Virus record (IMG/VR): IMGVR_UViG_3300043464_002177
DNA from: a virus
Taxonomy: Duplodnaviria > Heunggongvirae > Uroviricota > Caudoviricetes
Length of the DNA stretch: 64,000 nt
Reading direction: 5' to 3' (one strand)
Shown in pieces: positions 2,853 through 62,240 of this stretch; the stretch's first letter is position 1, and the number at the start of each line of letters is the position of its first letter. The translations under genes and the position numbers were made by a program. The notes under the pieces are model-generated. The model was not told the DNA's origin. It saw only the letters and a list, made by a program, of their open reading frames with translations, and searched no databases.

Positions 2853-2887
2853 TTCAGCCTTTATGGAAAAAGATTAAACAAAAACAC

Positions 2888-2914: not shown

Positions 2915-2948
2915 CAGACTTTTTAGTACAAACAAAAACATAAAAAGA

Positions 2949-3281: not shown

Positions 3282-3301
3282 TAAAGGGTTAGTTGTTCCT
3301 T

Positions 3302-3340
3302 GAAGACGGGTTTGTCATTTCCCGTCTTCTTTTTTTTTTT
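3302..3340 (+). terminator. Rho-independent terminator
   Basis: GAAGACGGG / CCCGTCTTC 9-bp stem, 10-nt loop, followed by T11; 20 nt after stop of ORF ending 3281. Confidence 0.7.
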
Positions 3341-3359
3341 AAATTATTACAAAAAAAAT

Positions 3360-3390
3360 TTTGTGGTTTGGATATAGTTTTATATTTTTG
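3360..3390 (+). promoter_or_regulatory. Host-type Bacteroidetes promoter (-33 TTTG 3360-3363, -7 TATTTTTG 3383-3390)
   Basis: TTTG ... 19 nt ... TAnnTTTG; preceded by ttattacaaaaaaaattttgt block shared with promoters at 6459 and 6959. Confidence 0.5.
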
Positions 3391-3425
3391 CTAACGATTT
3401 CATTATTCACCTAAATTCATTCAAA

Positions 3426-3686
3426 ATGAAAAAGAAACAAAAACACACTCTGTTGAAGGGCGAAGGCACTAATCAACACACATTGTATGGCGAATTTGCT
3501 ATTGAGGAAGTAGTAGATTTTCCGAAGGTTCAAGTAACGAAGGATAGCCTTCTTAAACACGAACAACCAGATGGTTCATTCAGTAACGAACACAAAGCGT
3601 TGCAGATTGATAAGGGGTTGTGGTCTATGGGTAAGCAAGTTGAGTACAACCCATTTGATAAAAGAGTTACTCAAATCTGGGATTAA
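3426..3686 (+). CDS. hypothetical protein
   Basis: ORF downstream of host-type promoter. Confidence 0.5.
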   Translation: MKKKQKHTLLKGEGTNQHTLYGEFAIEEVVDFPKVQVTKDSLLKHEQPDGSFSNEHKALQIDKGLWSMGKQVEYNPFDKRVTQIWD

Positions 3687-3717
3687 TTTTATTTAAAACT
3701 AATTTAATTTATTTACT

Positions 3718-4122
3718 ATGGCTAATCCTTTAATCCATTCAAAATCCAGCGTGAAGCGTTGGGGTGGTAATGTGGAAGATTATCTTCCAATCCACGAACT
3801 GATTGATAGTCCGAAGGCAGTAATGAATAACAACTCTGCCAGAGCATTAACACATCATACTTGGTTTGCTTATACTATCATTCCAAAAATCTTCGGTTAC
3901 AATATCACCAATAGTGATGGTAAGAGTGTTGATACTATTGATATTGCTATGTTGCATATTGCAGAAGATTTCAGAATGAAGTTTGTGCCAACAGCACAAG
4001 ATTACTTACAGCACATTCAAGTCCAAGCGTGGTTCAATAATGGCGTGAAGGAATTAGATAGTCAAGAAGGAAAAGAAATTGCTCAAAACTTAATTAAAAA
4101 ATTACAATATGAAAACAACTGA
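3718..4122 (+). CDS. hypothetical protein
   Basis: ORF in array. Confidence 0.5.
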   Translation: MANPLIHSKSSVKRWGGNVEDYLPIHELIDSPKAVMNNNSARALTHHTWFAYTIIPKIFGYNITNSDGKSVDTIDIAMLHIAEDFRMKFVPTAQDYLQHIQVQAWFNNGVKELDSQEGKEIAQNLIKKLQYENN

Positions 4123-4795
4123 ATTAACAGACTTGCAACAAATAATTGCACTCTGGAAAGAGAAGGGCATCACAGAATGTTCAATGGAATTTAATTGTGG
4201 TGGCGACCAGATGAATGATTACACCTTCACATTCTATACGAAGGAAGGTGAGATTAAGTGTGATGAACTTGAAAGTTACTTTGAGAACGAAGTGTATAAT
4301 CAAGTTGAGTTCTATGTTAATAGTGATGGTCATTATATGGGAGAGGCTGGATATGTTTATATCAGACTTGATGAAGATGATGAAGATAATGTGGATTTCA
4401 CTTACACAAAAGATGCTGAAAGTGAATGGAATGAAACCTTTTCAGAAGTCGCTTATTTCCCTTTAACAGATGACTATAAGAAGTTCATTCAAGATAAGGT
4501 TCAGAGTATTGTAGGTGGTGAAGATGGTGAAGCAATTAACTACAAAGGTGATTGCATCTTGACTGATGAAGAAGAAGCAATCGCAGATAACCTTCAAAGT
4601 GATTTGAGAGATTTTGCTTGTGATGTAGAAATATCTGATGCAGAAGGGGAAGCAGGTGATTGGTTTAGATTTAGTACCAATAATCCAGAAGATGATGATG
4701 CAGATGATGATACTATGGGGGTTACAATCACAGATGATGGGTTGAAGGTTAGCGTTGAAAAAACCTATTATGTTTACAAACCAAGCGAAGATTAA
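4109..4795 (+). CDS. hypothetical highly acidic protein
   Basis: ORF in array; D/E-rich throughout (DEDDEDN, EDDDADDD). Confidence 0.5.
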   Translation: MKTTELTDLQQIIALWKEKGITECSMEFNCGGDQMNDYTFTFYTKEGEIKCDELESYFENEVYNQVEFYVNSDGHYMGEAGYVYIRLDEDDEDNVDFTYTKDAESEWNETFSEVAYFPLTDDYKKFIQDKVQSIVGGEDGEAINYKGDCILTDEEEAIADNLQSDLRDFACDVEISDAEGEAGDWFRFSTNNPEDDDADDDTMGVTITDDGLKVSVEKTYYVYKPSED

Positions 4796-4818
4796 AAAAC
4801 ATTTAAAACTAATTCATT

Positions 4819-5499
4819 ATGAAGATTATCATTAACAATGTAGCGTTTGACTACAATATCGGTTGCAGACTTTTAAAGTCAAAGTATAAGAACGAACCAT
4901 TCGGAAATCTTGATGACATCTGGGAACATATTGTTCCTATGACATTCAAAGAAATCGCCACAGAGATTAAGAATTTAGAGCAGAGAAGAATAGCGATTGG
5001 TTGTCTGGGATTAGACCAGATAGTTAAAGAAGTTAATCCAACTCTGATGAGGTCTGAAACATTGAAGAAGCAGACCACTTGGGTTACACCAGAAGGTGAA
5101 TTGGAAACAAAGCAATTCAATGATACCTACGAACTATGGAAGGTTGAAGGTAATGCTTGGAGTGAAGGTACAGATGCCAGATGGGGTGCAGATGATGTCT
5201 TTTATATTAGATGTAAGGACACATCTACCGACAGAGAGTATCTTATCTGGGTTGATGCAGTAGATGTCGCCAGAACCAATAATAAAGATGGTTGGTTCAG
5301 TTCTGACAAGAGTAAGCACATCACACCAATTCAAGCGATTGCTTGGACAATCCAGACAGATATTGAGAAGGGTGGAATTGATAAGATTGTTAGACAGGGT
5401 GATTGCATCTTAATCAAGATGAAGAAAGATGCCACCAAAGGTAGAGTTAGACATCTGACAGAAGATGAATATAAAACTTTGTTGGTTGCAGAGAGTTAG
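4819..5499 (+). CDS. hypothetical protein
   Basis: ORF in array. Confidence 0.5.
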   Translation: MKIIINNVAFDYNIGCRLLKSKYKNEPFGNLDDIWEHIVPMTFKEIATEIKNLEQRRIAIGCLGLDQIVKEVNPTLMRSETLKKQTTWVTPEGELETKQFNDTYELWKVEGNAWSEGTDARWGADDVFYIRCKDTSTDREYLIWVDAVDVARTNNKDGWFSSDKSKHITPIQAIAWTIQTDIEKGGIDKIVRQGDCILIKMKKDATKGRVRHLTEDEYKTLLVAES

Positions 5500-5515
5500 T
5501 GCTGATTTGTTGAAT

Positions 5516-5547
5516 ACCCCCAGCAGAAATGTTGGGGGTTATTTTCT
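5516..5547 (+). terminator. Rho-independent terminator
   Basis: ACCCCCA / TGGGGGT stem with 10-nt loop followed by TATTTTCT; 17 nt after stop at 5499. Confidence 0.55.
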
Positions 5548-5566
5548 CACCTTTTAATTTTTTAAA

Positions 5567-5767
5567 ATGAAAGAAACTACTTTTTACATAGTTCAGTATA
5601 ATGACTGCTATGGTAATGGCGACCAGAAATCAAATGAAGTTCTGGTTAAAGATGAAGCAACCTTCTGGCGCTGGTTAAAGAAGCGTAATAAAGAAAGAAT
5701 CGCAGAAGGTGAGATGGAAGAACAAGTAGAAGAATTTGATTTAATCCCTATAACTTTATTTAAATGA
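5567..5767 (+). CDS. hypothetical protein
   Basis: ORF in array. Confidence 0.5.
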   Translation: MKETTFYIVQYNDCYGNGDQKSNEVLVKDEATFWRWLKKRNKERIAEGEMEEQVEEFDLIPITLFK

Positions 5768-6081
5768 GAAGAAACGCAAAGCGTGTCGCTGATCTATCCG
5801 ATCAGCTGGTCAGCGAGATCAACCAGGTGATAAGCACCAGATCAATCCAGGAAGTAGAATTCAATCGTCCGTTTACAATCCAGCTGGACGTTCAATCCAC
5901 CACAGGTGATTACTGGGACATAGAAGAAGGTTTATGTCGCAGGCTTACTGGTGAAGGTATTACAATCGTTCAATCCGATATTACAGGAGATGAGCAGGAG
6001 ATTAAACTGGAAGAACTTAGAGTTGTAGAACTTGCATTTATTCTGGACGAACTGGAAGAAGGGAATTACAAACCATTTTAA
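5764..6081 (+). CDS. hypothetical protein
   Basis: ORF in array; ATGA start/stop overlap with upstream ORF. Confidence 0.5.
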   Translation: MRRNAKRVADLSDQLVSEINQVISTRSIQEVEFNRPFTIQLDVQSTTGDYWDIEEGLCRRLTGEGITIVQSDITGDEQEIKLEELRVVELAFILDELEEGNYKPF

Positions 6082-6091
6082 ATAAAACTAT
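6080..6091 (+). promoter_or_regulatory. AAATAAAACTAT motif copy abutting ATG
   Basis: ttttaaataaaactatATG at 6092. Confidence 0.5.
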
Positions 6092-6352
6092 ATGGAAAAA
6101 TTCGAAAGAGATTCTAAGATTGCCAACTTCAATGAGAAGTTAAAAGCCATTCTAATTGAACTGGCAGTTAATGATGAGTTACCACTTGATATGACTACAC
6201 TGGACGCCAGTGTTTTTGATCCCTGTACTACACCAGTGATCGATACCCTGATCACATTACAGGAAGACGCTGAGTGGGCTCTTAATGGTAACTGGGACAG
6301 AAGCGATTCAGGTTTCGAAGCTCAGATTCAATTAATCAATAGTGTCTTATAG
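6092..6352 (+). CDS. hypothetical protein
   Basis: ORF in array. Confidence 0.5.
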   Translation: MEKFERDSKIANFNEKLKAILIELAVNDELPLDMTTLDASVFDPCTTPVIDTLITLQEDAEWALNGNWDRSDSGFEAQIQLINSVL

Positions 6353-6458
6353 TAAAAAAATTTAAGGAGCTTCGGACTGCTATGTATACGCAAGCTTTAA
6401 ACGTCACCAATCGAGCAGGGAATAGTGGTACCTTAATTTTTTATTACAGAAAAAATGT

Positions 6459-6488
6459 TTTGTATTTTAAATAACTTTATTACATTTG
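6459..6488 (+). promoter_or_regulatory. Host-type Bacteroidetes promoter (-33 TTTG 6459-6462; -7 TACATTTG 6481-6488)
   Basis: Perfect TAnnTTTG, 18-nt spacing; lies in a ~50-nt block (6441-6490) duplicated exactly 500 bp downstream. Confidence 0.55.
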
Positions 6489-6503
6489 TAAAAAAAACAC
6501 ACT

Positions 6504-6683
6504 ATGGTAAAAGTTTATTTTGAATTGGACAATGGCAAGTATGCCGAACTGGTCGCGATCTTTGATGATGAAGAGACGTATGACGTGTGCCTTCCCGCAC
6601 TGGAGAAGTTGTGTAAGAAACACAATTTTGATTTAGTAACAGAATCAGTAGATGAAGAAACAGAACTAAAAGAACTCGTATGA
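6504..6683 (+). CDS. hypothetical 59-aa protein (not in supplied track)
   Basis: ATG 6504 16 nt downstream of -7 box; translates MVKVYFELDNGKYAELVAIFDDEETYDVCLPALEKLCKKHNFDLVTESVDEETELKELV; stop TGA overlaps next ATG (gtATGAcg). Confidence 0.45.
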   Translation: MVKVYFELDNGKYAELVAIFDDEETYDVCLPALEKLCKKHNFDLVTESVDEETELKELV

Positions 6684-6940
6684 CGAAGACAGAATTTTAT
6701 CAGAAATATGGAGCGTATCTAGAAGCGGTTGCTGAGGATAATGCTGAGTATGGCGATCATTTGATTCTTCACCCAGAAGAAATTGATCTTGCTAGGAAGT
6801 ACCAGAAGGAAGGATTAAGTATTGTTTCTGTTCATGAGACGGAAGACGGCGAAGACTTCGTTGATATTTCGCAGCCATGTGATTTTGGTACGCAGCCATT
6901 TAAGTACGGGTATTACGCCGTAAACGTGGCGATTCATTAA
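6680..6940 (+). CDS. hypothetical protein
   Basis: ORF; ATGA overlap with upstream micro-gene suggests translational coupling; start embedded in CGTATGAC octamer. Confidence 0.5.
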   Translation: MTKTEFYQKYGAYLEAVAEDNAEYGDHLILHPEEIDLARKYQKEGLSIVSVHETEDGEDFVDISQPCDFGTQPFKYGYYAVNVAIH

Positions 6941-6958
6941 TTGTTACAAAAAAATATT

Positions 6959-6988
6959 TTTGTATTTTAAATAATTTTATTACTTTTG
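6959..6988 (+). promoter_or_regulatory. Host-type Bacteroidetes promoter (-33 TTTG 6959-6962; -7 TACTTTTG 6981-6988), duplicate of 6459-6488
   Basis: Same block as at 6441-6490, exactly 500 bp offset. Confidence 0.55.
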
Positions 6989-7009
6989 CTAAAACTTAAT
7001 AACGATCGT

Positions 7010-7816
7010 ATGACACAGTATCTTTCACAGTACAAAAACAAAGCCCAGGCTAAACGCGAAACTAGCTTGAGCTACCTAGGCGGAATTAACACCAGCTCAA
7101 AGATTGCAAAGGGGCTCAAGTATGACGAGATGACCTACATCCTGTACCTGGCACCTGCAGATCGCAGCGGCTATGAAGTTTGCCCAATGCGCAGCAAAGA
7201 ATGCACAGCAGCCTGCTTACATGAGAGCGGCCATAACAGGATTGACATCCATGAAAATGTTATCAATAAGGCCCGTATTACGAAGACGAAGTTATTCTTT
7301 GAGAATCGTCCTTTCTTCATGGGCTGGCTAGTGGATGAGATACGCAGCGCGCAGAGCAAAGCAATTGCTGCAGGCAAAAGCTTCAGCGTTCGTCTGAACG
7401 GTACTAGTGACCTAAGCCCTGAACAGTTTCACCTGGATGGGAAAAACATCCTGGAGATCTTTCCTGAAGTACAGTTCTATGATTATACCAAAGTATATAA
7501 CCGTACCAAGTTAACAAAGAAGTACAGCAACTATGACCTAACGTTTTCCTACAGTGGGACGAACGCTGTACAGTGCCAGGATGCATTGCTTCAGGATATC
7601 AGGGTCGCCGTAGTATTCGAAAAAGTTCCTGAACAGTTTTGGGGTAGACTAGTAATCGATGGAGATGCATACGATATGCGTTATCAGGACCAGGGCGGCG
7701 TGATCGTGGGCCTTAAGTATAAGAAGGTCCGCAATAAGCTTGAGCTCACTAAAAGCAAGTTCGTTATATCAGAAGAGAAACTTTTAAATAAATCTATTTC
7801 AAATGGAATATATTAA
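7010..7816 (+). CDS. hypothetical protein (269 aa)
   Basis: Track ORF 6986..7816 starts at TTG inside the -7 box; ATG at 7010 (MTQYLSQYK) inside CGTATGACACAG preferred. Confidence 0.5.
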   Translation: MTQYLSQYKNKAQAKRETSLSYLGGINTSSKIAKGLKYDEMTYILYLAPADRSGYEVCPMRSKECTAACLHESGHNRIDIHENVINKARITKTKLFFENRPFFMGWLVDEIRSAQSKAIAAGKSFSVRLNGTSDLSPEQFHLDGKNILEIFPEVQFYDYTKVYNRTKLTKKYSNYDLTFSYSGTNAVQCQDALLQDIRVAVVFEKVPEQFWGRLVIDGDAYDMRYQDQGGVIVGLKYKKVRNKLELTKSKFVISEEKLLNKSISNGIY

Positions 7817-8165
7817 ATATATCAACGACCTCAGGAATGAGCTACACAGAAAAATTGTATACCAGTCGATCTTAGCTCACCATCCAGGATCAGAATACGT
7901 CCTGGATCTTAACGAACCAGTCCAGGCGTTCTACACAGTGGCATCCAGGGAAACTGGTGAACCTAACGCAACCCAGGTTACAGTAACCGGGATTGATGGC
8001 TCAACCGGCGAGCTCATTGCAGCCACAGCGACCGGCATACGTAAGAAGTTATATTATAACGATCTTACTCTAGAACAGCTAGCCAGGTTATTACTTCACC
8101 TGGAAGCTAAATTATTCACAGTAACAGAATTTAAAAATGATAGAAACCTTATCACAGTTGGTTAG
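7803..8165 (+). CDS. hypothetical protein
   Basis: ORF in array. Confidence 0.5.
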   Translation: MEYIKYINDLRNELHRKIVYQSILAHHPGSEYVLDLNEPVQAFYTVASRETGEPNATQVTVTGIDGSTGELIAATATGIRKKLYYNDLTLEQLARLLLHLEAKLFTVTEFKNDRNLITVG

Positions 8166-8526
8166 AAAACCTAGCAAAGCTAGTGACCACGACCTTGAGC
8201 TTATTGGATGGAAAGAAAAACAAGCTAGAGTACTCAAGCACATGCAGCGAGATGAGAAGCTTATTCAGCTGCTAGAAGAATTCAAAGCCGTTAATGATCG
8301 TCTTAAGTTCTTTAGATCAAAGAACGACGTCAAAGTATACTTCTCGACTCAGGAGAAGGGCGGCGAAGAATATCTATACGCCCGCTGCTTCTTTAATATT
8401 GACGGGAAGCCCCGCGAGTTTAAGAAGTACCTGGGAATAGCGGATCAGGTGAATCCTGATCACCTGGACATGGGTGAGTTAAAAGAAATATTTTTAAGAA
8501 TGTTAAAAAATTATTTGGCATATTAA
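8137..8526 (+). CDS. hypothetical protein
   Basis: ORF in array. Confidence 0.45.
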   Translation: MIETLSQLVRKPSKASDHDLELIGWKEKQARVLKHMQRDEKLIQLLEEFKAVNDRLKFFRSKNDVKVYFSTQEKGGEEYLYARCFFNIDGKPREFKKYLGIADQVNPDHLDMGELKEIFLRMLKNYLAY

Positions 8527-8579
8527 AAATAAAATATAACTTGCCGGTGTATTACGAAAAAAGAGAAAACAACCAGTTC

Positions 8580-8594
8580 AAATAAAACTATTTT
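8580..8594 (+). promoter_or_regulatory. AAATAAAACTATTTT motif copy
   Basis: ttcaaataaaactattttaaatcATG at 8600. Confidence 0.5.
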
Positions 8595-8599
8595 AAATC

Positions 8600-8818
8600 A
8601 TGGAAGCATACAAGATTAAAGCGAATGAGGATTTTTGTGACCACCTGTTGCGTGTGATCAAAGATAACGGAACATGGGGATGGCCCGATCAACAGGTGAT
8701 CTTCGTAATACGCGGCGGGAAGATCCTAGGAGAAGCTGCGGCACTGGAAAAGGCTAAGACAATAGTTAGCCCTGAGTACTTCAAAAAAAATTTTGGAATA
8801 TTAAAAGAGAATTCTTAA
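8600..8818 (+). CDS. hypothetical protein
   Basis: ORF in array. Confidence 0.5.
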   Translation: MEAYKIKANEDFCDHLLRVIKDNGTWGWPDQQVIFVIRGGKILGEAAALEKAKTIVSPEYFKKNFGILKENS

Positions 8819-8838
8819 TTTTACAAAAAATAACAACT

Positions 8839-9084
8839 ATGGCAACGAAAATTCAAGACCCACAAACCTTTTGGAACAAGAAAGCTGCTGAAGTATTACG
8901 CGGCAAAACAATTGTAGAAGCTAGATACCTGAATGATAAGGAGATGGAGATGATGGGATGGTACAAACGCCCATTATGCTTTTTCCTGAACGACGGCACT
9001 TCATGCATTCTATCTATGGATGATGAAGGAAACGACGGCGGCGCATTATTCTATGGAAGTGACGGTGTATTACCTACCCTTTAA
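8839..9084 (+). CDS. hypothetical protein
   Basis: ORF in array. Confidence 0.5.
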   Translation: MATKIQDPQTFWNKKAAEVLRGKTIVEARYLNDKEMEMMGWYKRPLCFFLNDGTSCILSMDDEGNDGGALFYGSDGVLPTL

Positions 9085-9104
9085 TTTATATAAACTATAA
9101 TATC

Positions 9105-9302
9105 ATGATAACTCATCAAACAAAATTCGGAGAAGTTCAATTAAGAGTCGCAATGATTGACACTAATGGAACAGATTTATGTGAAGGCGTCGAAGTGAAA
9201 GTCGATGGCGAATTAATCGGAGAAGTTTTCGATGTTGATACAGATTACATTGAAGAAATGAGTGTTGAAGAAGTTGAAGAAATTGTAGAGAGTATTATCT
9301 AA
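9105..9302 (+). CDS. hypothetical acidic protein
   Basis: ORF in array. Confidence 0.45.
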   Translation: MITHQTKFGEVQLRVAMIDTNGTDLCEGVEVKVDGELIGEVFDVDTDYIEEMSVEEVEEIVESII

Positions 9303-9308
9303 CCTTTT

Positions 9309-9319
9309 AAATAAAACTA
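9309..9319 (+). promoter_or_regulatory. AAATAAAACTA motif copy
   Basis: ttttaaataaaactaactATG at 9323. Confidence 0.45.
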
Positions 9320-9322
9320 ACT

Positions 9323-9694
9323 ATGGCAAAGAAATTTAAAGTAAGGTTCAACCTGGGGAAAGGAAAGAACTACATGAAGTGGAAAGTAGAATCGGATGGA
9401 GAGTCCAACTACTACAGCCCTGAAGAATATAACCTGTATATGTACGGCTGCCAGTTGAAGAACCAGCGGGCTACTGCAAACAAGATTCACCAGGGAGCTA
9501 ACAAAGCTGTATGCGCCTGGATCTTGTGCGACACAATTCTGCTGGCACAAAACATCGAGCTTCCTGAAGCAAACACCAGGTTAACATATAACCCGCGTGT
9601 CAGGCCCAACTGGATGGCGGGAGATGTGCTCGCAGATAACGCTAACTTCGAAAGCATTTGGAGCGACGGTAGAAAATTATTCACAAATATTTAA
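9323..9694 (+). CDS. hypothetical protein
   Basis: ORF in array. Confidence 0.5.
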   Translation: MAKKFKVRFNLGKGKNYMKWKVESDGESNYYSPEEYNLYMYGCQLKNQRATANKIHQGANKAVCAWILCDTILLAQNIELPEANTRLTYNPRVRPNWMAGDVLADNANFESIWSDGRKLFTNI

Positions 9695-9706
9695 ATCTAT
9701 TTTAAA

Positions 9707-9997
9707 ATGGATGCATTAACTTTAAGTAATGAATATCTCGACAAGTATAAGTTCGAGATGTACACCAAAGCCGGCGATAACGCCTGCAGGTCAATTGTGC
9801 GCGCTGCGTGGAAAAAGCTGGACGGTACCAAAAGAGTTTCAGGGCAGGAGATGTTTGATTACGTAAAAGAAAGAATGGACGTAGTCAAAGCGAAACATCC
9901 TGAAGTATACGACACTGAGCCTAACTACCACATCTACCTGCTGGTGGCTAAGAAAGCAAAAGAGTATGAGTACGACTTCACACAATATTTTCAATAA
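9707..9997 (+). CDS. hypothetical protein
   Basis: ORF in array. Confidence 0.5.
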   Translation: MDALTLSNEYLDKYKFEMYTKAGDNACRSIVRAAWKKLDGTKRVSGQEMFDYVKERMDVVKAKHPEVYDTEPNYHIYLLVAKKAKEYEYDFTQYFQ

Positions 9998-10003
9998 GTT
10001 TCA

Positions 10004-10018
10004 AATAAAACTATTTTA
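10004..10018 (+). promoter_or_regulatory. AAATAAAACTATTTT motif copy
   Basis: gtttcaaataaaactattttaaaaATG at 10022. Confidence 0.5.
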
Positions 10019-10021
10019 AAA

Positions 10022-10273
10022 ATGGAAGCAGCATTAATAGGTGAAGAAACCATCCTGGTGTTTGTAATAATCACCCCGCCAGGAGAAGAACTGTTTGTTA
10101 CCTGGAACAAACATAACCACACTGAGAACAGACCGGACGCATTATCTTACATCCCGGAATATGTTGTTGAAGACAACTTAGAGAATGAACTTGAGCAGGG
10201 CTGTCAAGATTGGCTGGATGCTGTAGCTGCAGTAAAAGAATGGCAGGAGAAGCATAATGTGCAATTATATTAA
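10022..10273 (+). CDS. hypothetical protein
   Basis: ORF in array. Confidence 0.5.
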   Translation: MEAALIGEETILVFVIITPPGEELFVTWNKHNHTENRPDALSYIPEYVVEDNLENELEQGCQDWLDAVAAVKEWQEKHNVQLY

Positions 10274-10295
10274 AAACCAATTAAATTTAAATAAA

Positions 10296-10562
10296 ATGGA
10301 CAAAGTAGCAAAGTACAAGGCGGCTGCGCAAAGATGGGCAGCAAGATGGAAAGTTGAGGAGCAGCACGCAATAGATGTTGCAGCATCAATCTTGATGACT
10401 CGTGATAAAGTTCAAATGGGCGGAAGCTTCGCACAGGCGATTGTAGATAACAATCTACGTGAAGCGATCAACAGGGCGGATGATACCTGTATAAAGTATT
10501 TGAAGTTCTTCAGCATCATTAATTGGAACTGTGGTAGCTATGAAATCGAAAACGGACAGTAG
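10296..10562 (+). CDS. hypothetical protein (start at internal ATG after truncated motif)
   Basis: Track ORF 10257..10562; tttaaataaaATGgac at 10296 gives MDKVAKYK start without overlap. Confidence 0.45.
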   Translation: MDKVAKYKAAAQRWAARWKVEEQHAIDVAASILMTRDKVQMGGSFAQAIVDNNLREAINRADDTCIKYLKFFSIINWNCGSYEIENGQ

Positions 10563-10737
10563 GATGACCAGGGAGCAAATAGAAAGGAAGCTTGAGGATT
10601 TGAAATCACTTAAGCTTCCACAGCTAAACAAGAAAAGCAGAGCTCACCAGGACTGGAAGCGCGAGATGGAGAATCTCACCAGGCTTCTAGACACTGAGAT
10701 GGGTAAATTAAACAACCTTTTAAAAAGAACTATATGA
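10531..10737 (+). CDS. hypothetical protein (alternative non-overlapping start at 10564)
   Basis: ORF in array; ATG 10564 (MTREQIERK) lies just after upstream stop. Confidence 0.45.
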   Translation: MVAMKSKTDSRMTREQIERKLEDLKSLKLPQLNKKSRAHQDWKREMENLTRLLDTEMGKLNNLLKRTI

Positions 10738-11054
10738 AAGGAATATTCATAGACGCAAAGAATCGACAGGTAACTTATGTTAATACCAAAGCACAGCTGG
10801 AGGATCTTTACTTAATCCTTGGCGTCAATATGGTAGAGATCGGGAAGTACTGGGAGAACGGTGACACACTGTGGGTTGATGAGGAAGGATTAATTAACGG
10901 TACTGACTTCGGGTTCCAGGTTCAGGGATTAGAGTTCCTGGGCAATGGATTAATCCTGGGGACTAACAGGGAGAACCCTGAGGCTCACGACTCGGCCCTA
11001 ACAAAGATCGAGGACCTGAAGCTAAAGTTCTTTGAACTAGTCCCAGCAGTTTAA
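10734..11054 (+). CDS. hypothetical protein
   Basis: ORF in array; ATGA overlap. Confidence 0.5.
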   Translation: MKGIFIDAKNRQVTYVNTKAQLEDLYLILGVNMVEIGKYWENGDTLWVDEEGLINGTDFGFQVQGLEFLGNGLILGTNRENPEAHDSALTKIEDLKLKFFELVPAV

Positions 11055-11067
11055 AATAAAACTATTT
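11053..11067 (+). promoter_or_regulatory. AAAATAAAACTATTT motif copy
   Basis: tttaaaataaaactatttgaattATG at 11073. Confidence 0.5.
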
Positions 11068-11072
11068 GAATT

Positions 11073-11324
11073 ATGGAAAACAGTTACAGAGTTTTATGGG
11101 AGATAGATGTGGATGCGGCGGACGCTAAGGATGCTGCGCAACAGGCTTATGCTGCAATAGTGAGTGGTGCTGCACCGGTATTTGAAGTTCATCAATGGCG
11201 AGAACCGGAGATGATCCATATAGATCCGGTGGCCCTGGTGGATGTGAAGGACCTGTCGGCGGATCTACCTGTACCAGACAAAAGGATCATTACTGAAACC
11301 TATATGGGACCAGATATCATTTAA
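11073..11324 (+). CDS. hypothetical protein
   Basis: ORF in array. Confidence 0.5.
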   Translation: MENSYRVLWEIDVDAADAKDAAQQAYAAIVSGAAPVFEVHQWREPEMIHIDPVALVDVKDLSADLPVPDKRIITETYMGPDII

Positions 11325-11337
11325 AATAAAACTATTT
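11323..11337 (+). promoter_or_regulatory. AAAATAAAACTATTT motif copy
   Basis: tttaaaataaaactatttcaattATG at 11343; 23-mer nearly identical to copy at 11051. Confidence 0.5.
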
Positions 11338-11342
11338 CAATT

Positions 11343-11531
11343 ATGCACAAGACACTTGTTAAGATTTGGATCGATCAAAAGAAATCATCGATCAACTGGA
11401 AGATGAATATGGGATTGATCAATGTCAACTCAGCAACCGACCAGATCCAGCTCCTGGATGAATTGATCGACGACTTCAACCTGGAGGAGGTAACTGAAGA
11501 CCAGGATTACTTCATAGAAAAAAATTTTTGA
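11343..11531 (+). CDS. hypothetical protein
   Basis: ORF in array. Confidence 0.5.
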   Translation: MHKTLVKIWIDQKKSSINWKMNMGLINVNSATDQIQLLDELIDDFNLEEVTEDQDYFIEKNF

Positions 11532-11580
11532 TTCTAAGAAATAATTCTTAATTTTCCAGCTCAAACCAAAATTCATTCGT

Positions 11581-12213
11581 ATGACACAGACAATCAACCT
11601 AGGCCCAGAAGTTTATGTAACGGACCCTTGCTACAGTGTACCGACCTGGTGCCAAATCAAGCTTACCAATGTATTACCTGGTGAATGGATCGTATCAATG
11701 ATCTATGACGAAAAAGGCGGAAGCAACAGGAACGCTGAGCTCTACCTGGTCCACAAGGATTATCAGGGAAAGAATCTTCTGTATGACTGGGACTGGCTTG
11801 GGGACTTCGGCGTCGACAGCGGCCAGGCGGGAGTGTTTGATGCTGCGTCATACAGGAACGATGCATATGCTGCAGGTATTACAACACCTAAGTTAGATTT
11901 TGTGTATGAGTATTTTCAGGAAGGCGACATCTGGTATGAGAAGATGTGCAAGTTCACACTGGCGAACGACGGCTGGGGAGCATACGCAGCAGGTGCAGTA
12001 TCCAGCAGCGGCTATGGCGACGGAGAGTATCCAGTATACGGTGCTGAAGTTGACGGTAAGGTTGTAGCGCTTCAACTAGTGTTCATTGATCAATCCGCGG
12101 ATGACGATGAAGACCTGGAGGAGGACTGCTGCAATGAATGCGGGGCGGAACTAGAGTGGGACGGATCTTGTGACTACTGTGAGCACTTCAAGAATTCAAA
12201 GCTTGAAGATTAA
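11581..12213 (+). CDS. hypothetical protein with C-terminal Cys-rich zinc-ribbon-like motif
   Basis: ORF; start inside CGTATGACACAG; C-terminal CCNECGAELEWDGSCDYCEHF. Confidence 0.5.
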   Translation: MTQTINLGPEVYVTDPCYSVPTWCQIKLTNVLPGEWIVSMIYDEKGGSNRNAELYLVHKDYQGKNLLYDWDWLGDFGVDSGQAGVFDAASYRNDAYAAGITTPKLDFVYEYFQEGDIWYEKMCKFTLANDGWGAYAAGAVSSSGYGDGEYPVYGAEVDGKVVALQLVFIDQSADDDEDLEEDCCNECGAELEWDGSCDYCEHFKNSKLED

Positions 12214-12226
12214 ATAAAACTATTTC
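12213..12226 (+). promoter_or_regulatory. AAATAAAACTATTT motif copy
   Basis: gattaaataaaactatttcaaat; overlaps stop of previous ORF, 22 nt before ATG 12248. Confidence 0.45.
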
Positions 12227-12247
12227 AAATTCTTAAAACAAATCGAT

Positions 12248-12490
12248 ATGACTAAGAAGACTAAAGAACCGGTTCTAATCAAATGGGTTAAAATCGGAAT
12301 CAAGGAAAAGAAGAAGTGGGACACGAATCCGAAGTCCCCTCTAAATACAGCAGCGTGTCTCCAGTACCTGTACGACCGCTACGCTTACCAGATGTTTGAA
12401 GACGGGCTAACCCTCAACGACATTTTTTATGAAGCCAGGTTCTACTTCAAAAAGATCGGAATCACCGGCCGAGGTAAGAATCGCAAATAA
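12248..12490 (+). CDS. hypothetical basic protein
   Basis: ORF in array. Confidence 0.5.
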   Translation: MTKKTKEPVLIKWVKIGIKEKKKWDTNPKSPLNTAACLQYLYDRYAYQMFEDGLTLNDIFYEARFYFKKIGITGRGKNRK

Positions 12491-12499
12491 AACTATTTT
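12485..12499 (+). promoter_or_regulatory. AAATAAAACTATTTT motif copy
   Basis: Overlaps stop TAA 12488-12490; followed by weak hairpin TCCT-ccc-AGGA + T8 (12507-12525) then ATG 12569. Confidence 0.4.
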
Positions 12500-12568
12500 A
12501 AAATATTCCTCCCAGGATTTTTTTGTTCCAGTTTTTTTTCTTATATTATTTCATAAACAATAAATGTT

Positions 12569-12754
12569 ATGAAAAAGAACAGAACAACCAATTCCACCCC
12601 GCTAACTGTATACCAGGCAGTGGGACCAAACATCTACTTTGATGGTAACAGCTATCGAGTTCGTGTAATTGTTAAAGGTCAACGTTACTCTAAGAATCTA
12701 ACTTCGAAGAGAGCAGCTGTCCAATATCGCAATTCACTTCTTAAGACTGCTTAA
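12569..12754 (+). CDS. hypothetical protein
   Basis: Last ORF of the + array. Confidence 0.5.
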   Translation: MKKNRTTNSTPLTVYQAVGPNIYFDGNSYRVRVIVKGQRYSKNLTSKRAAVQYRNSLLKTA

Positions 12755-12781
12755 GAGATCAACAGTAGTAGGTTTGTTAAA

Positions 12782-12817
12782 TAAGGGAGAACATCAATAC
12801 GTCTCCCTTATTTTTTT
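12782..12817 (+). terminator. Rho-independent terminator ending the + strand array
   Basis: TAAGGGAGA / TCTCCCTTA 9-bp stem, 11-nt loop, followed by T7. Confidence 0.65.
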
Positions 12818-12836
12818 AACATTTAAATTCTGACGC

Positions 12837-12950
12837 ATGTATTACCTTCCAATCTGGCTCGAGTTCCTGATCTATGGAACAATTGTATTTTTCGCCATAG
12901 TAATGGTGAAGTACTGCTTCGATCTGATAAAGATCGTTAGGGAGAAGTAA
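12837..12950 (+). CDS. hypothetical 37-aa hydrophobic micro-protein (not in track)
   Basis: ATG 12837; MYYLPIWLEFLIYGTIVFFAIVMVKYCFDLIKIVREK; single predicted TM helix. Confidence 0.3.
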   Translation: MYYLPIWLEFLIYGTIVFFAIVMVKYCFDLIKIVREK

Positions 12951-12998
12951 CCAGATCTCCCATGTATTACCTGGACACCTGGGCGGGACAAGGAAAAT

Positions 12999-13014
12999 GA
13001 AATAAAACTATTTT
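12999..13014 (+). promoter_or_regulatory. GAAATAAAACTATTTT motif copy with no ORF downstream
   Basis: Followed by GC-rich palindromic sequence (AGCCGGCT) and a CGTATGAC copy; candidate sRNA promoter. Confidence 0.4.
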
Positions 13015-13052
13015 ATTTTTTAACCAGCCGGCTAGCCTGGCTCCCGGACACG

Positions 13053-13060
13053 CGTATGAC
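13053..13060 (+). repeat. CGTATGAC octamer copy (non-coding)
   Basis: acgCGTATGACacc. Confidence 0.5.
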
Positions 13061-13115
13061 ACCCCACCGATGAGCCTCATATATATGGGGCCTTTTCTTT
13101 TCCTGGATGTCAAGA

Positions 13116-13142
13116 GGCGCCGAGTCCTTTATACGAGGCGCC
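13116..13142. repeat. Hairpin family A copy 1: GGCGCC-[GAGTCCTTTATACGA]-GGCGCC
   Basis: 6-bp GC stem, 15-nt loop; loop near-identical to copy 2 while stem sequence differs but stays complementary. Confidence 0.55.
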
Positions 13143-13163
13143 GATCTATCCCACAAAAAATTG

Positions 13164-13171
13164 CGTATGAC
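13164..13171 (+). repeat. CGTATGAC octamer copy (non-coding)
   Basis: ttgCGTATGACatagg. Confidence 0.5.
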
Positions 13172-13206
13172 ATAGGGGACCCTCAGGGATCGCCACCTAA
13201 GATTTT

Positions 13207-13221
13207 AAATAAAACTATTTT
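13207..13221 (+). promoter_or_regulatory. AAATAAAACTATTTT motif copy with no ORF downstream
   Basis: Followed within 10 nt by CGTATGAC, then hairpin B1 (13255-13281); only an 11-codon ORF follows. Confidence 0.4.
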
Positions 13222-13229
13222 AAATTTCA

Positions 13230-13237
13230 CGTATGAC
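13230..13237 (+). repeat. CGTATGAC octamer copy (non-coding)
   Basis: ttcaCGTATGACgccc. Confidence 0.5.
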
Positions 13238-13247
13238 GCCCGGCCCA

Positions 13248-13290
13248 GTAGATCGGCCGCTCCCATAAAGGGGTCGCGGCCTCTTAGACA
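13248..13290. repeat. Hairpin family B copy 1: TAGATCG-GCCGC-TCCCATAAAGGGGTC-GCGGCC-TCTTAGACA
   Basis: Stem GGCCGC/GCGGCC 13255-13260/13276-13281; loop has inner CCC/GGG mini-stem; flanks and loop conserved with copy 2. Confidence 0.55.
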
Positions 13291-13344
13291 TCCCCGAATA
13301 TTTTGTTTAAGTATTACGCGCAAAAGTTAAACACTCAGTAACAC

Positions 13345-13352
13345 GTCATACG
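13345..13352 (-). repeat. CGTATGAC octamer copy, inverted orientation
   Basis: acacGTCATACGcgcg. Confidence 0.45.
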
Positions 13353-13372
13353 CGCGCGCCGCCGGAGGCAAA

Positions 13373-13401
13373 GCCCGCCGAGCCCTTCATGCGAGGCGGG
13401 C
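13373..13401. repeat. Hairpin family A copy 2: GCCCGCC-[GAGCCCTTCATGCGA]-GGCGGGC
   Basis: 7-bp GC stem, 15-nt loop matching copy 1 at 12/15 positions; stem covaries. Confidence 0.55.
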
Positions 13402-13482
13402 GTATTACATGAATATCAAGAAGAATTTTAGAATTTCAAAAAAATGTGGTCGTGATTCACACAAGGGACACTTCCTGGGTGG

Positions 13483-13511
13483 TTCCCACTTATTAACATT
13501 TTTTCCCACTT
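13483..13511. repeat. Direct repeat TTCCCACTT x2, 20-nt period
   Basis: ggTTCCCACTTattaacatttTTTCCCACTTtttg. Confidence 0.4.
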
Positions 13512-13880
13512 TTTGTGATTGTAATACAGGGAGCCCAAAAAAGTAGGGCTACAGGGGGTAATATCGCCAATAAATTTAGTACGATAGACGATGTACCTAA
13601 AATGGCAGTAAAATATATGTTTATTTATATAAATGTAGTCAATTTGTCATGGTCATAAAACCATAATACCTACTTCTTTTTTTTAGCTTTTGCTACCTTA
13701 ATTTTGTTAACAGTATGCTTCTGACCAAGATTATCAAGGAAGAGTTCACCTATAAAATAGAATAAAACTACACCTAAAGGAAAAAGGAATGTGCTCATAA
13801 TTTCAAGTTTTAATATGCAAAATTAATTATTAATATCCATACTACCAAATCTATTGTGCAAAATGTAGAGCATTTGTTGT

Positions 13881-13920
13881 GCCAAATTCGGAAGTAAAAA
13901 CGCGCCAAAGTCGGAAGTAA
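13881..13920. repeat. Direct repeat GCCAAAnTCGGAAGTAA x2, 21-nt period
   Basis: GCCAAATTCGGAAGTAAaaacgcGCCAAAGTCGGAAGTAAttag. Confidence 0.45.
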
Positions 13921-13921
13921 T

Positions 13922-13960
13922 TAGATCGCCCCTCCCCATAAAGGGGTGAGGGGCTCATAG
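13922..13960. repeat. Hairpin family B copy 2: TAGATCG-CCCC-TCCCCATAAAGGGGTGA-GGGGC-TCATAGAAC
   Basis: Stem GCCCC/GGGGC 13928-13932/13950-13954; same conserved flanks and loop as B1 with compensatory stem change; abuts 3' end of - strand ORF 13955..14137. Confidence 0.55.
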
Positions 13961-14137
13961 AACACCGAGGTTATCTATATGTTTTTCGATTAGATCTTCT
14001 GTTAGATCATCTTCATACATGAGTTCTAGAACCTTACCATTAAACATAGGGGAAGTTACCTTATGGTATATTACTTCACCTTCAGGATCTAGAATGGTCT
14101 CCAGATATACTTTAAACTTACCAATGATTTTTTCCAT
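13955..14137 (-). CDS. hypothetical protein
   Basis: First ORF of the - strand block. Confidence 0.45.
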   Translation of the reverse strand: MEKIIGKFKVYLETILDPEGEVIYHKVTSPMFNGKVLELMYEDDLTEDLIEKHIDNLGVL

Positions 14138-14157
14138 ATTATGATTTTAATAATTGT

Positions 14158-14487
14158 CTATAATAGCTTCATCATCCTTAGGGTTCTCTCATATCTTTCA
14201 TTAGCTGTTTCCTTCTTTTTCACCTTAGGCCAATCCTTTTTAAACCATGGTCTATTATAGGAATCTGAATAATAGTGATATAGAAATCCGTTAGATCTAA
14301 GCATTTGTTTTATGGCATCTGCTTTAGCATATGGTTTTTCTAGCTCATCAAAAGATCTTTTAATATCTATCTTTACTATGAGCTGGTTATCATATTTCTC
14401 ATATACTTCTACCTTTGTAAGTAAATACATACCATCCATCTCTGTATAGGGTTTCAGGTATTCTAGTATTTCTTTGTTGCTTTTCAT
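14158..14487 (-). CDS. hypothetical protein
   Basis: ORF in - strand block. Confidence 0.5.
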   Translation of the reverse strand: MKSNKEILEYLKPYTEMDGMYLLTKVEVYEKYDNQLIVKIDIKRSFDELEKPYAKADAIKQMLRSNGFLYHYYSDSYNRPWFKKDWPKVKKKETANERYERTLRMMKLL

Positions 14488-14527
14488 ATGGTATTAGTGT
14501 GTGTTGTAATATAAATCCTTAATAGAT

Positions 14528-60297: not shown

Positions 60298-62073
60298 TTA
60301 AAAATTATATTTAAGGTTTAAATTAATACTTCTTGTTGGTAAATCAACTGACGATCCCCAAACTCTACTAGCATCATTGAATAAGTTATAAAACAACATA
60401 GTGTATTCTAAATTTTTATACTTTGTGGTGTATCCAATGTTCACCAATCTCACACCTTTATTGTGTAAAAATTGTCGAACATCATTTCTATCTGCAAATG
60501 ATAAAGATTGATCAATTGGTTGATATCTACCTTCCACCCATAGCTTATTATAATTTAGTTTGATGTAGCCAAAATATGGTACTGTTTTATCAACTGGTTC
60601 TGTTGTGGTTCCTGTTAATCTTTTAACACCATAAACATATTCTGCTCTAGCATTCACACCTAATTTAGTTCCAAACAAACTATCATTAAAATAACCTAAC
60701 GTTGCACCGTTTACCGAAACGCCACCAATGTTATCTGTCCTAAAGACGTTTGTCGATAGTACGGTTACATTAAATGCTTCATCTAATTCTTTAAAGTAAA
60801 CGTCTAAATATAAATTACTTCTTTTATAACCAAATCGATATGTTTGACCTCTCTCTTGTATTAAATCCGGGTTTGGTAATTGTGTACCTCTACCATTTGT
60901 CATTGCTTGTTTAATCATCAAATAACTTGGTGCGTTTAAGCTATTGTCATAACTTGCAAATAGACCTTTGTATCCAACAATTGCTGAATATTCAAAACCA
61001 TTAAATGGATCAATATCAGTTATTTGAACATTCTTTAATCCTAAGCTTGTATAAACTTTTACTTTACCAATTTCATTAATCCAACGAATACCATGCTTTG
61101 TTGTTTTGTAATCATCGTTTGATACCCCGCCAACTAAACCATTTTCATATCTGATTTTTTCGATTGTGTTTGTTGAATATATACTAAATGAATGTGGTAA
61201 TTGATATTCAAGATTTGCGGTATATGCGTCTAGGCGACTAGCAACTTTTTTTGTCCCATCTAAAATATCTTCTGCACTGTTTTGATACGCAAGGTTCACA
61301 CGTAGTCTGTTTAAATTCATCTCATGATTAACAAACAAATATCTTTGTAGTTCCCATGTATAAACCGCCGGTCTTTGATAACCAGAGCTTCTGAAGCCAC
61401 CATTCCATCTATCTGTTCTTTCTAAATCATTTGATTGTGAAAAAATTAAAGTTGTTTTTTGTGTTGAAGACCAGTTCGCTTCAGACACCAATGCTTTTTG
61501 ATTGTAAGCACTGTGTTGAAATGTACTATCAGGAGATATCACATTACCATAGTCAATGTTGTTAAACCCAATACCAAATTTCTTACCCTTATAAGATGCT
61601 GATTGGCTAAATCCATCCGTACCACCCACATAATTTAATCCAACATGTGATGATTGAACACCAACCTTTCTTTCGATTGTTCCACCAATATTACCACCAT
61701 CTGTAATAGAAATTAACTTTGTGAATTCTAGTGGAACCCATCCAAAATATTGGTTTGGTCCGGTTCTAAACAAACCGTTATTAACCCTAATACCATTAAT
61801 TGATTGGTCAACTTGATTACCAGTAAACGCCCCAACATATGGACTTAGTTGTCCTGGACTTGTTTCCTGAATTCGTGCAGAGTTCAAGTATACTTTCGGG
61901 TTTTTTATTACTTGTTGCACCTGATAGTTGGTGCCCCCAACAACAACAACTTCTTTCAATTCTATTGAAGCTGTGTCTTTTTGAATTGTACCGCTACTTT
62001 GTTGTCCAAATGACATAGTAGTAGTAAACAATAGTGCTAACATTAGCGATAGCATTGTGATTGTTTTTCTCAT
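60298..62073 (-). CDS. TonB-dependent-receptor-like outer-membrane beta-barrel protein
   Basis: Start at MRKTITMLSLMLALLFTTTMSFGQQ (signal peptide); plug-like region (VVVVGGTNY ... DGGNIGGTIER); alternating beta-strand pattern; C-terminal ...LKYNF aromatic terminus. Confidence 0.45.
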   Translation of the reverse strand: MRKTITMLSLMLALLFTTTMSFGQQSSGTIQKDTASIELKEVVVVGGTNYQVQQVIKNPKVYLNSARIQETSPGQLSPYVGAFTGNQVDQSINGIRVNNGLFRTGPNQYFGWVPLEFTKLISITDGGNIGGTIERKVGVQSSHVGLNYVGGTDGFSQSASYKGKKFGIGFNNIDYGNVISPDSTFQHSAYNQKALVSEANWSSTQKTTLIFSQSNDLERTDRWNGGFRSSGYQRPAVYTWELQRYLFVNHEMNLNRLRVNLAYQNSAEDILDGTKKVASRLDAYTANLEYQLPHSFSIYSTNTIEKIRYENGLVGGVSNDDYKTTKHGIRWINEIGKVKVYTSLGLKNVQITDIDPFNGFEYSAIVGYKGLFASYDNSLNAPSYLMIKQAMTNGRGTQLPNPDLIQERGQTYRFGYKRSNLYLDVYFKELDEAFNVTVLSTNVFRTDNIGGVSVNGATLGYFNDSLFGTKLGVNARAEYVYGVKRLTGTTTEPVDKTVPYFGYIKLNYNKLWVEGRYQPIDQSLSFADRNDVRQFLHNKGVRLVNIGYTTKYKNLEYTMLFYNLFNDASRVWGSSVDLPTRSINLNLKYNF

Positions 62074-62106
62074 TTTGTTTTTGTTTAAGAAAAATTTATA
62101 AAATTG

Positions 62107-62196
62107 CGGGGAGGAAGAGATTCGGACTCTCGATTGAATGTTAAGTCCAATAGCAGCTTCGGAGGCTGTCGGTTTAAACCACTCACCCACCTCCCC
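62107..62196 (-). tRNA. tRNA-like cloverleaf, 90 nt (anticodon-loop CUCCGAA suggests anticodon CCG; long variable arm)
   Basis: On - strand: 7-bp acceptor stem GGGGAGG/CCUCCCC; U8; D-arm with A14, GG, A21; anticodon stem CAGC/GCUG with loop C-U-CCG-A-A; 21-nt variable arm with 5-bp stem; T-arm GAGAG-UCCGAAU-CUCUU (G53, C56, A58, C61 conserved; C at 55); discriminator G; no encoded CCA. Confidence 0.35.
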
Positions 62197-62240
62197 TTGC
62201 AATCATATTATAATATAAACAAAAAATATCAGATATACAA

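Follow-up and report, generated by a model that had tools for sequence, protein, structure and literature searches.

Candidate non-coding transcription units in a conserved intergenic hub of an uncultured freshwater phage

Introduction

What do copies of a phage start motif do where no gene stands behind them? The question is raised by a ~1.2-kb non-coding region (12,950-13,960; hereafter the hub) of an uncultured freshwater phage (Caudoviricetes; IMG/VR record IMGVR_UViG_3300043464_002177), of which a stretch of 64,000 nucleotides (nt), the window, was analysed. In the hub, which lies between converging gene blocks, two copies of a motif that elsewhere in the window precedes genes are followed by hairpins, and in an original prediction each copy was taken to start a short non-coding transcript that ends at a strong hairpin about 35-60 nt further on. 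Our tentative reading, to which we give a little less than an even chance, is that the hub motif copies drive two non-coding transcription units whose ends differ from those first proposed.

To our knowledge, the non-coding RNAs of lytic phages, especially of Bacteroidota phages, are barely charted, and the control regions of jumbo phages are largely unknown. Described below are the elements of the hub, their enrichment and conservation, and the covariation and strand asymmetry of its hairpins, all of which are observed directly, followed by the transcripts to which they point.

Results

Motif copies in the hub match those that precede genes

The 15-mer AATAAAACTATTTTA has exact matches at 8581, 10004, 12486, 13001-13015 and 13208-13222, and with up to two mismatches it is found 16 times in the window against 2.33 expected, a count reached by none of 100 shuffles. 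Its 11-nt core, AATAAA[AT]C[TA]AT, has 15 plus-strand copies, nine of which lie 11-19 nt upstream of the ATG of an open reading frame (ORF) of at least 40 codons. A second repeated element, the 8-mer CGTATGAC (hereafter the box), is present in nine copies against 0.79 expected. The motif copies and boxes of the hub, with the elements to their left, are as follows.

12486-12500, plus strand: third orphan motif copy, an exact match, overlapping the stop of an 80-amino-acid (aa) gene
12779-12819, plus strand: canonical intrinsic terminator of a 61-aa gene, a perfect 12-base-pair (bp) stem followed by T7 (inverted repeat I11)
13000-13015, plus strand: motif copy 1 (AAATAAAACTATTTTA), an exact match, putative promoter of RNA1
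13053-13060, plus strand: box 1 (CGTATGAC)
13164-13171, plus strand: box 2 (CGTATGAC)
13207-13222, plus strand: motif copy 2 (AAATAAAACTATTTTA), an exact match, putative promoter of RNA2
13230-13237, plus strand: box 3 (CGTATGAC), which begins a non-conserved 11-codon frame
13345-13352, minus strand: single reverse CGTATGAC box, its position kept in most lineages

Both hub copies are exact matches, copy 2 with a score of 28.9 that equals those of gene-preceding copies, so that the two are, as had been claimed, indistinguishable from the copies in front of genes; only their coordinates had been placed one base off.

Nor is there a gene behind them. An 86-aa mechanical ORF (13070..13330) covers motif copy 2 and hairpins, but the close relatives L021 and L016 lack its ATG and it is uncalled on public contigs, and it is therefore not a gene, in keeping with the original view. 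Gene callers run on ten identical public contigs called nothing between the 61-aa gene and a 42-aa minus-strand ORF, and the hub units hold no conserved protein-coding frame, as expected of small RNA genes. The 11-codon frame behind copy 2 (ATG 13233 to TAA 13266-13268) was rejected as a functional mini-ORF: the corresponding frames of relatives range from 2 to 22 codons and have only Met-Thr in common.

For comparison across lineages, eleven metagenome contigs were found with a 24-nt pattern from a stretch of high conservation, and more distant relatives were recovered through homologues of the adjacent 61-aa protein. In more than ten lineages, the same converging blocks enclose a non-coding hub of 0.6-1.2 kb, with one or two motif copies per lineage, all on the plus strand (17 of 17 by a by-eye tally of the ten loci that have a hub motif). 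Ten loci each have a single instance of the second unit, in which 3-26 nt separate the motif from a [CT]GTATGAC box behind it, and when eight lineages are aligned over 220 nt, no contiguous block other than the core of motif 2 is conserved there. Copy 1 is present in the window group and in L022/L019. In no lineage was a gene or ORF found behind the hub copy. In L026 and L017 the variant AAAAATAAATCTATYT appears in the hub copy and before the genes of those lineages alike; since it matches the variant that each lineage uses before genes, the hub copy looks functional and not like a relic. In L015, L031, L033 and L034, the motif lies 6-11 nt downstream of a hairpin of the terminator family described below, a terminator-then-promoter layout.

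The 41 nt downstream of copy 1 contain no ATG, so copy 1 is not a translation-start element, and because both copies are also downstream of the strong terminator at 12779-12819, neither is an intercistronic translation signal. Conservation, layout and the 41 nt without ATG together argue for a DNA signal that starts transcription, as opposed to a translation signal or a decaying relic. As host-type promoters (TTTG...TAnnTTTG) also occur in the window and differ from the motif, the motif is most likely, to judge from these sequences, a promoter that a phage-directed RNA polymerase or specificity factor recognises.

Several other identities were considered for the motif and rejected: a host -7 box (it does not match TAnnTTTG), a T4 late promoter TATAAATA (the occurrences are on the wrong strand relative to genes), a phiKZ-type early promoter (leaders there are 31-40 nt, unlike here) and a crAss-like early promoter (the phi14:2 paper gives no common early motif). 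An invertible promoter was likewise rejected, the motif being on the plus strand in every contig and lineage; inverted-repeat arms at 13112-13148 and 13249-13285 do flank motif 2, and the only recombinase-like feature seen was a stand-alone arm-like fold. A literature search with the motif strings returned primers only, and a scan of bacterial genomes for motif plus box gave fifteen chance matches, none of them hub-like.

Elsewhere in the window, a strong motif copy with one mismatch (47783-47797, plus strand) lies antisense within a minus-strand NlpC/P60 gene (47435..47917) and may mark an antisense start or match by chance. A second gene-start signal, ATATTTATA, stands 3-5 nt before the ATG of several genes (19818, 29264 and 38628 on the minus strand; 20625 and 34961 on the plus strand) and has TATTT in common with the 3' half of the main motif.

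A covarying hairpin family that probably marks gene ends and divides the hub

Behind the motif copies lie two hairpins of unit 1 and, in and at the border of the hub, four members of one hairpin family (H1-H4).

13026-13042, plus strand: 5'-proximal hairpin of predicted RNA1 (AGCCGG-CUAGC-CUGGCU), from folding
13074-13100, plus strand: intrinsic-terminator-like hairpin (stem 13074-13091, then CTTTTCTTTT), predicted 3' end of RNA1
13110-13149, plus strand: H1, in sense (A) orientation; covariance model score 48.5 bits, expectation value (E) = 2e-11
13248-13287, minus strand: H2, the hairpin originally named B1, sense on the minus strand; 51 bits
13368-13407, plus strand: H3, sense on the plus strand, predicted 3' end of RNA2; 43.6 bits
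13921-13960, minus strand: H4, sense on the minus strand, right limit of the hub; 50.7 bits

The covariance model finds exactly these four family members in the window. Across all lineages, 20 distinct members align without gaps with 95.6% of cells paired, whereas slid controls reach at most 52.5%, and double-sided changes are seen in all eight pairs. The H1 orthologue of L022 carries compensatory changes, and the stems of the H4 orthologues are changed in L012, L023, L034 and L026. H2 and H1 (13112-13148) form a 37-nt inverted repeat that is 78% complementary (I1), and an inverted-repeat comparison also brought out the resemblance of B1 to H3 (13366-13405) and to H4 (13922-13961). These three relatives of B1 had been missed in the original prediction, as had the terminator-like site at 13074-13100 and the third orphan copy at 12486.

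The two strands of the family are unequal. The A orientation has seven G·T against one C·A, together with a conserved tandem G·A/A·G and a CCTTTAT loop, and it is the asymmetry and the tandem G·A that place the A-orientation strand under selection as a single strand. Members outside hubs are in the A orientation and lie just 3' of the stop codons of minus-strand genes, two of them with U-tracts (GUUUUUAUUU and CUUUUUAUUG); H4 extends over the stop codon of the last gene on the minus strand (13955..14137). From strand asymmetry and gene-end positions, we read the family as being of a gene-end (terminator) type that would act in the A orientation. H1 and H3 would accordingly face rightward and H2 and H4 leftward transcription, and the family would divide the hub into compartments. 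In L027, L029 and L036, the hub hairpins keep the tandem G·A and have GAAA, GAA or GTTA as loops instead of CCTTTAT.

A search of Rfam returned no family for the window at the gathering score, with the best sub-threshold matches in 12400-14200 at E > 1, and no match for eight related loci at E up to 0.5.

Two predicted transcripts would end elsewhere than first proposed

From these elements we infer that the motif copies act as promoters, where transcription starts and stops, and what function there may be. RNA1, of ~85 nt (~13017-13100), would start from copy 1 and contain one CGUAUGAC box as well as a 5' hairpin; a canonical hairpin with a U-tract would form its end, with H1 behind this terminator as a second stop. 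The GC-rich palindrome and the box that had been described behind copy 1 are where they were said to be (CCAGCCGGCTAGCCTGGCTC at 13024-13043; box 1), but the palindrome does not make a plausible end for the unit, as its hairpin is 5'-proximal and the likely end is at 13074-13100. The 13026-13042 hairpin has a G·U pair that exists on the plus strand only, and other lineages have a hairpin of different sequence in the same place (GTGGTC-AAATTC-GACCAC in L022; GGACCAGT-ACCAT-ACTGGTCC in L015/L024). The hairpin at 13074-13100 comprises seven pairs, including one U·G, a wobble that likewise exists on the plus strand only, and is conserved in L014, L021 and L016 with changes in the loop only. L021 and L016 have a 38-nt insertion after box 1 (aligned after 13066), which lengthens the predicted RNA1 and leaves the terminator untouched.

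RNA2, predicted to start from copy 2 and to end at H3, would be ~185 nt long (~13224-13410). It would include a CGUAUGAC box, then H2 in the antisense form, which is the weaker one, followed by an AT-rich hairpin and the reverse box GUCAUACG; its end at H3 would lie just ahead of DNA sites that form an ultra-conserved block. All lineages have an H3 orthologue, 110-290 nt beyond motif 2, and their elements follow one another in the same order. Box, 11-codon frame and hairpin B1 do follow copy 2 as described. The B1 stem pairs GGCCGC (13255-13260) with GCGGCC (13276-13281), giving a 6-bp GC stem plus an inner stem, and its 78-nt context folds at -20.8 kcal/mol, so that a stable GC-rich stem-loop is present. 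As an end of RNA2, however, B1 is not supported: on the plus strand it has neither a U-tract nor the orientation of the gene-end members, being the antisense of the family. In alignment with relatives, the plus-strand 3' flank of B1, TCTTAGAC, corresponds to a degenerate CGTATGAC box; a scan with the terminator consensus does not report B1 on the plus strand, and a T6 follows the B1 orthologue in L026 and L017 alone. With H3 as the next sense hairpin on the plus strand, the 35-60-nt spacing first envisaged for unit 2 would give way to ~185 nt. The short non-coding transcripts as originally conceived are partly supported: the conservation of their starts fits promoters, and other ends are predicted.

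CGTATGAC boxes in the hub and at gene starts

Every lineage has five to nine boxes in its hub, nearly all on the plus strand. In the window, three genes also have their start codon inside a box, at 6680, 7010 (GP88-like) and 11581 (DUF4241), the boxes being 6677-6684, 7007-7014 and 11578-11585; the GP88-like gene probably starts at ATG 7010 and not at TTG 6986. The box at the DUF4241 start is kept in most lineages. By a by-eye tally, six lineages have both this box and the reverse box that precedes H3, four have neither, and one has the DUF4241 box without the reverse box. The reverse box was also compared by eye, as an antisense partner, with these start regions, but the pairing amounts to only 7-9 bp without consistent extension or, for DUF4241, covariation, and the idea was rejected. 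In the distant lineages L027 (6195-6222), L029 (6193-6217) and L036 (4365-4395), a box lies in the loop or 5' arm of a canonical terminator (CCCGG-TTGTATGA-CCGGG-T6).

With low confidence, the RNAs or the DNA boxes may help control the early genes that start in a CGTATGAC box (6680, 7010, 11581). A specific form of this idea, that the CGUAUGAC copies in the hub RNAs act as decoys or pairing partners that set the translation of early genes (DUF4241, GP88-like and an 86-aa protein), or else that the 61-aa protein reads the boxes as DNA, we regard as a long shot.

DNA elements and the borders of the hub

The hub is bounded on the left by the terminator at 12779-12819, whose stem changes in L022/L019 are compensatory; some ~40 small plus-strand ORFs (250-12,950) converge here on minus-strand genes that end at 13,955, and the hub coincides with this switch of gene orientation and with the maximum of the cumulative GC skew. 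Gene content at its left edge varies: a 37-aa ORF in the window group, none in L022, two extra genes in L015/L024 and a gene of 239-331 aa in L026, L027, L031, L034 and L036. Three elements of the hub have the look of DNA sites or repeats.

13304-13333, no strand: AT-stem inverted repeat TGTTTAA...TTAAACA (inverted repeat I15)
13440-13530: ~90-bp non-coding block, near-identical in all related lineages
13849-13920: iteron-like direct repeats with 23-nt spacing

The arms of the inverted repeat are kept in most lineages without covariation, which suggests a DNA site; its spacer holds GTATTAC (GTATGAC in L022). The block at 13440-13530 is conserved beyond the flanking genes, the proteins of the lineages being only 70-90% identical. 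It holds GGTCGTGAnTCACACAAGG, a GTGAnTCAC palindrome whose half-sites are constant and whose centre base is T, A or G among lineages, and two or three TTCCCACTT repeats, and on the minus strand it begins with TGTATTAC; from its sequence it looks like a cluster of protein-binding DNA sites. The direct repeats (ATCTATTGTGCAAAAT / ATTTGTTGTGCCAAAT and GCCAAATTCGGAAGTAA / GCCAAAGTCGGAAGTAA) are kept in L012, L022, L024, L026 and L034, and the 13540-13900 stretch is AT-rich.

Within the hub there is also a 42-aa hydrophobic ORF (13670-13798, minus strand) that is not present in the relatives L012, L014 and L021 and that has its own canonical Bacteroidota promoter (TTTG-N19-TAATTTTG, ~13825-13855). 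In many independent metagenome contigs of the phage and its relatives, contig ends pile up at ~12948-12996 and ~13342-13530, likely as an ultra-conserved block beside variable sequence breaks the assembly of mixed populations.

The gene of the 61-aa protein (12569-12754, plus strand) always adjoins the hub. The protein has 38 homologues with 22 invariant positions, and a conserved host-type promoter (TTTG-N17-TATATTTT) lies in the region upstream of its gene (12505-12568). Its structural model (predicted local distance difference test, 87) has four strands and a helix, and its best matches among solved structures, all weak (E = 0.3-1), are arm-type integrase and AP2 DNA-binding domains.

Phage and host

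The window has a GC content of ~32% and encodes thymidylate synthase, an M23 peptidase and ArdC-like, PcfJ-like, DenV-like, Acb1-like and Kyanoviridae Gp96-like proteins, families that indicate a large phage; a relative with a 74% identical 61-aa protein is found on a 324-kb contig (Ga0620987_00297). Contigs identical to the window come from several freshwater metagenomes and show no variation; the phage is present in JGI sample 3300002835 and in several ENA and SRA samples. In the phage collection, neither megablast with 12000-14500 nor tblastn with a 635-aa protein gave a match, and other tblastn matches were limited to auxiliary genes that cyanophages also have. Among viral contigs, hairpin patterns, conserved-block patterns and a protein-based locus search were all without match.

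Bacteroidota-type promoters (TTTG-N~19-TAnnTTTG) lie upstream of several gene groups (471, 2350, 2907, 3383, 6481 and 6981 on the plus strand; 13825 on the minus strand), and the start codons of the window are not preceded by Shine-Dalgarno sequences; from these two features the host is probably a member of the Bacteroidota. ARAGORN calls a 91-nt transfer RNA (tRNA), tRNA-Arg(CCG), at 62106-62196 on the minus strand, overlapping the 5' end of a TTG-start 634-aa ORF (60298..62202), and either the start at 62202 or the tRNA call is questionable and needs checking.

Discussion

How well do two transcription units account for the hub? A number of observations weigh against them. The predicted RNA1 and RNA2 fold no better than shuffles (z = +0.08 and -0.29, respectively), so it is to the covariation of individual hairpins that the case for RNA structure has to appeal; the whole 420-nt region does give strong z-scores on both strands, which reflect only the H1/H2 and box/reverse-box inverted repeats. 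Conservation is uneven as well: copy 1 is absent in L015/L024, only the closest lineage has the unit-1 terminator, which is not conserved in L022, and the sequence between motif and hairpin is poorly conserved beyond the box. The orphan copy at 12486 is found only in the closest lineage (window, L014, L021), with the host-type promoter of the 61-aa gene, and not an ATG, as the next element, and this promoter-like leader downstream of it is conserved in all lineages; such a lineage-specific copy means that orphan copies can arise by gene turnover. The U-tracts of H1 and H3 are weak (the 3' flank of H3 is GTATTAC). In front of genes, the motif ends 0-7 nt before the start codon, which would give leaderless transcripts or unusually short leaders, and a motif so close to start codons is not securely a promoter; moreover, the window yielded neither a phage RNA polymerase nor a sigma factor. 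Finally, the inverted repeat with conserved arms, the GTGAnTCAC palindrome and the TTCCCACTT repeats resemble DNA sites and not RNA.

The last point leads to the most serious rival, namely that the hub may be, or include, a replication origin or nucleoprotein control site, with the orphan promoters serving the origin by priming or activation and with the boxes, the inverted repeat, GTGAnTCAC and the TTCCCACTT and GCCAAAKTCGGAAGTAA repeats as protein-binding sites, possibly for the 61-aa protein. We think this unlikely as a whole, though well worth keeping in view. It would account for the near-identity of 13440-13530 across lineages with its palindrome half-sites kept, for the 23-nt-spaced repeats (13849-13920) beside AT-rich DNA (13540-13900), and for a highly conserved protein always beside the hub whose best matches are of the arm-type integrase and AP2 kind, although these matches are weak (E = 0.3-1) and no replication initiator has been identified. 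The position at the orientation switch and GC-skew maximum would suit an origin, yet GC skew tracks gene orientation here and so is not independent evidence. Priming or activation is argued against by H3, which stands between motif 2 and the conserved block and would stop transcription. The boxes are short, numerous and variably spaced, in the manner of iterons, but they are mostly in one orientation and overlap gene starts, and an RNA-level or directional role fits them at least equally well.

Two further readings were weighed. If the motif marked the borders of small-gene cassettes, orphan copies would be what remains after gene loss and would have little function. The variable gene content of the hub's left edge, as at the indel sites of promoter-early stem-loop (PeSL) elements, would then be expected, and so would a copy at 12486 in one lineage only and the lack of copy 1 in L015/L024; composite terminator/promoter sequences of the PeSL type are reported to mediate indels (PMC4122927). 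A relic should decay, however, and the hub copy instead follows the variant of its lineage; in ten loci, motif 2 and box sit at one hub position and are fully identical, between flanks that have diverged, with a gene behind motif 2 in no lineage, and we consider empty cassette junctions improbable. More improbable by far is that the motif serves to initiate translation at the ATG of the box, from which ribosomes would control the folding of the next hairpin. In unit 2, the box ATG does follow TATTT by 8-12 nt in most lineages, and the frames of the window, L026 and L017 stop at a TAA in the hairpin loop, but a common frame in three of four cases is within chance, neither the length (2-22 codons) nor the sequence of the peptide is conserved, and unit 1 has no ATG for 41 nt. 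The units, being downstream of terminators, would moreover still require a promoter of their own.

Many lineages of a phage group met repeatedly in lake metagenomes have kept the hub, which combines a sharp phage-specific start signal, a new family of covarying hairpins and a repeated 8-mer that is common to gene starts. If the transcripts are real, they would be defined, easily probed candidates for phage regulatory RNAs and a route to the factor that reads the motif; if the hub is an origin instead, it would mark the start of replication in an uncultured jumbo phage. Either way, hairpin model and motif are usable for the annotation of related genomes.

Among known elements, intrinsic terminators share with the hub family GC-rich covarying stems after stop codons, and some family members, as well as the 13074-13100 hairpin, have a U-tract. 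The family differs in its conserved tandem G·A internal motif and CCUUUAU loop, and the U-tracts of most members are weak and interrupted (GAUCUAC, GUAUUAC). The T4 origins ori(uvsY) and ori(34) and the primary origin of T7 are transcription-dependent phage origins. Like them, the hub has a gene-less, here putative, promoter beside repeats and AT-rich DNA in a non-coding region; unlike in them, H3 separates the putative hub promoter from the repeat block. PeSL elements are composite terminator/promoter sequences of T4-type phages that mediate indels in hyperplastic regions (PMC4122927). The likeness lies in a repeated conserved motif at the junctions of small early ORFs, in a hairpin directly upstream of it in relatives and in varying gene content. 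PeSL promoters, however, are host-type early promoters, which the hub motif is not, and the hub copies are conserved without a gene behind them; membership of the phage in the T4 group is not established.

In the Cellulophaga crAss-like phage phi14:2, abundant non-coding transcripts arise from long intergenic regions, which adjoin early genes and are transcribed in the early-gene direction (bioRxiv 10.1101/2020.03.07.982082). There, transcription was measured and no common motif was reported upstream of early genes, whereas the hub has a sharp motif and is known from sequence alone; the two show no sequence similarity, as judged in the phage collection. What they have in common is long intergenic regions in a phage of a Bacteroidota host (a probable one here), and the intergenic transcription of phi14:2 is the closest measured parallel to the hub.

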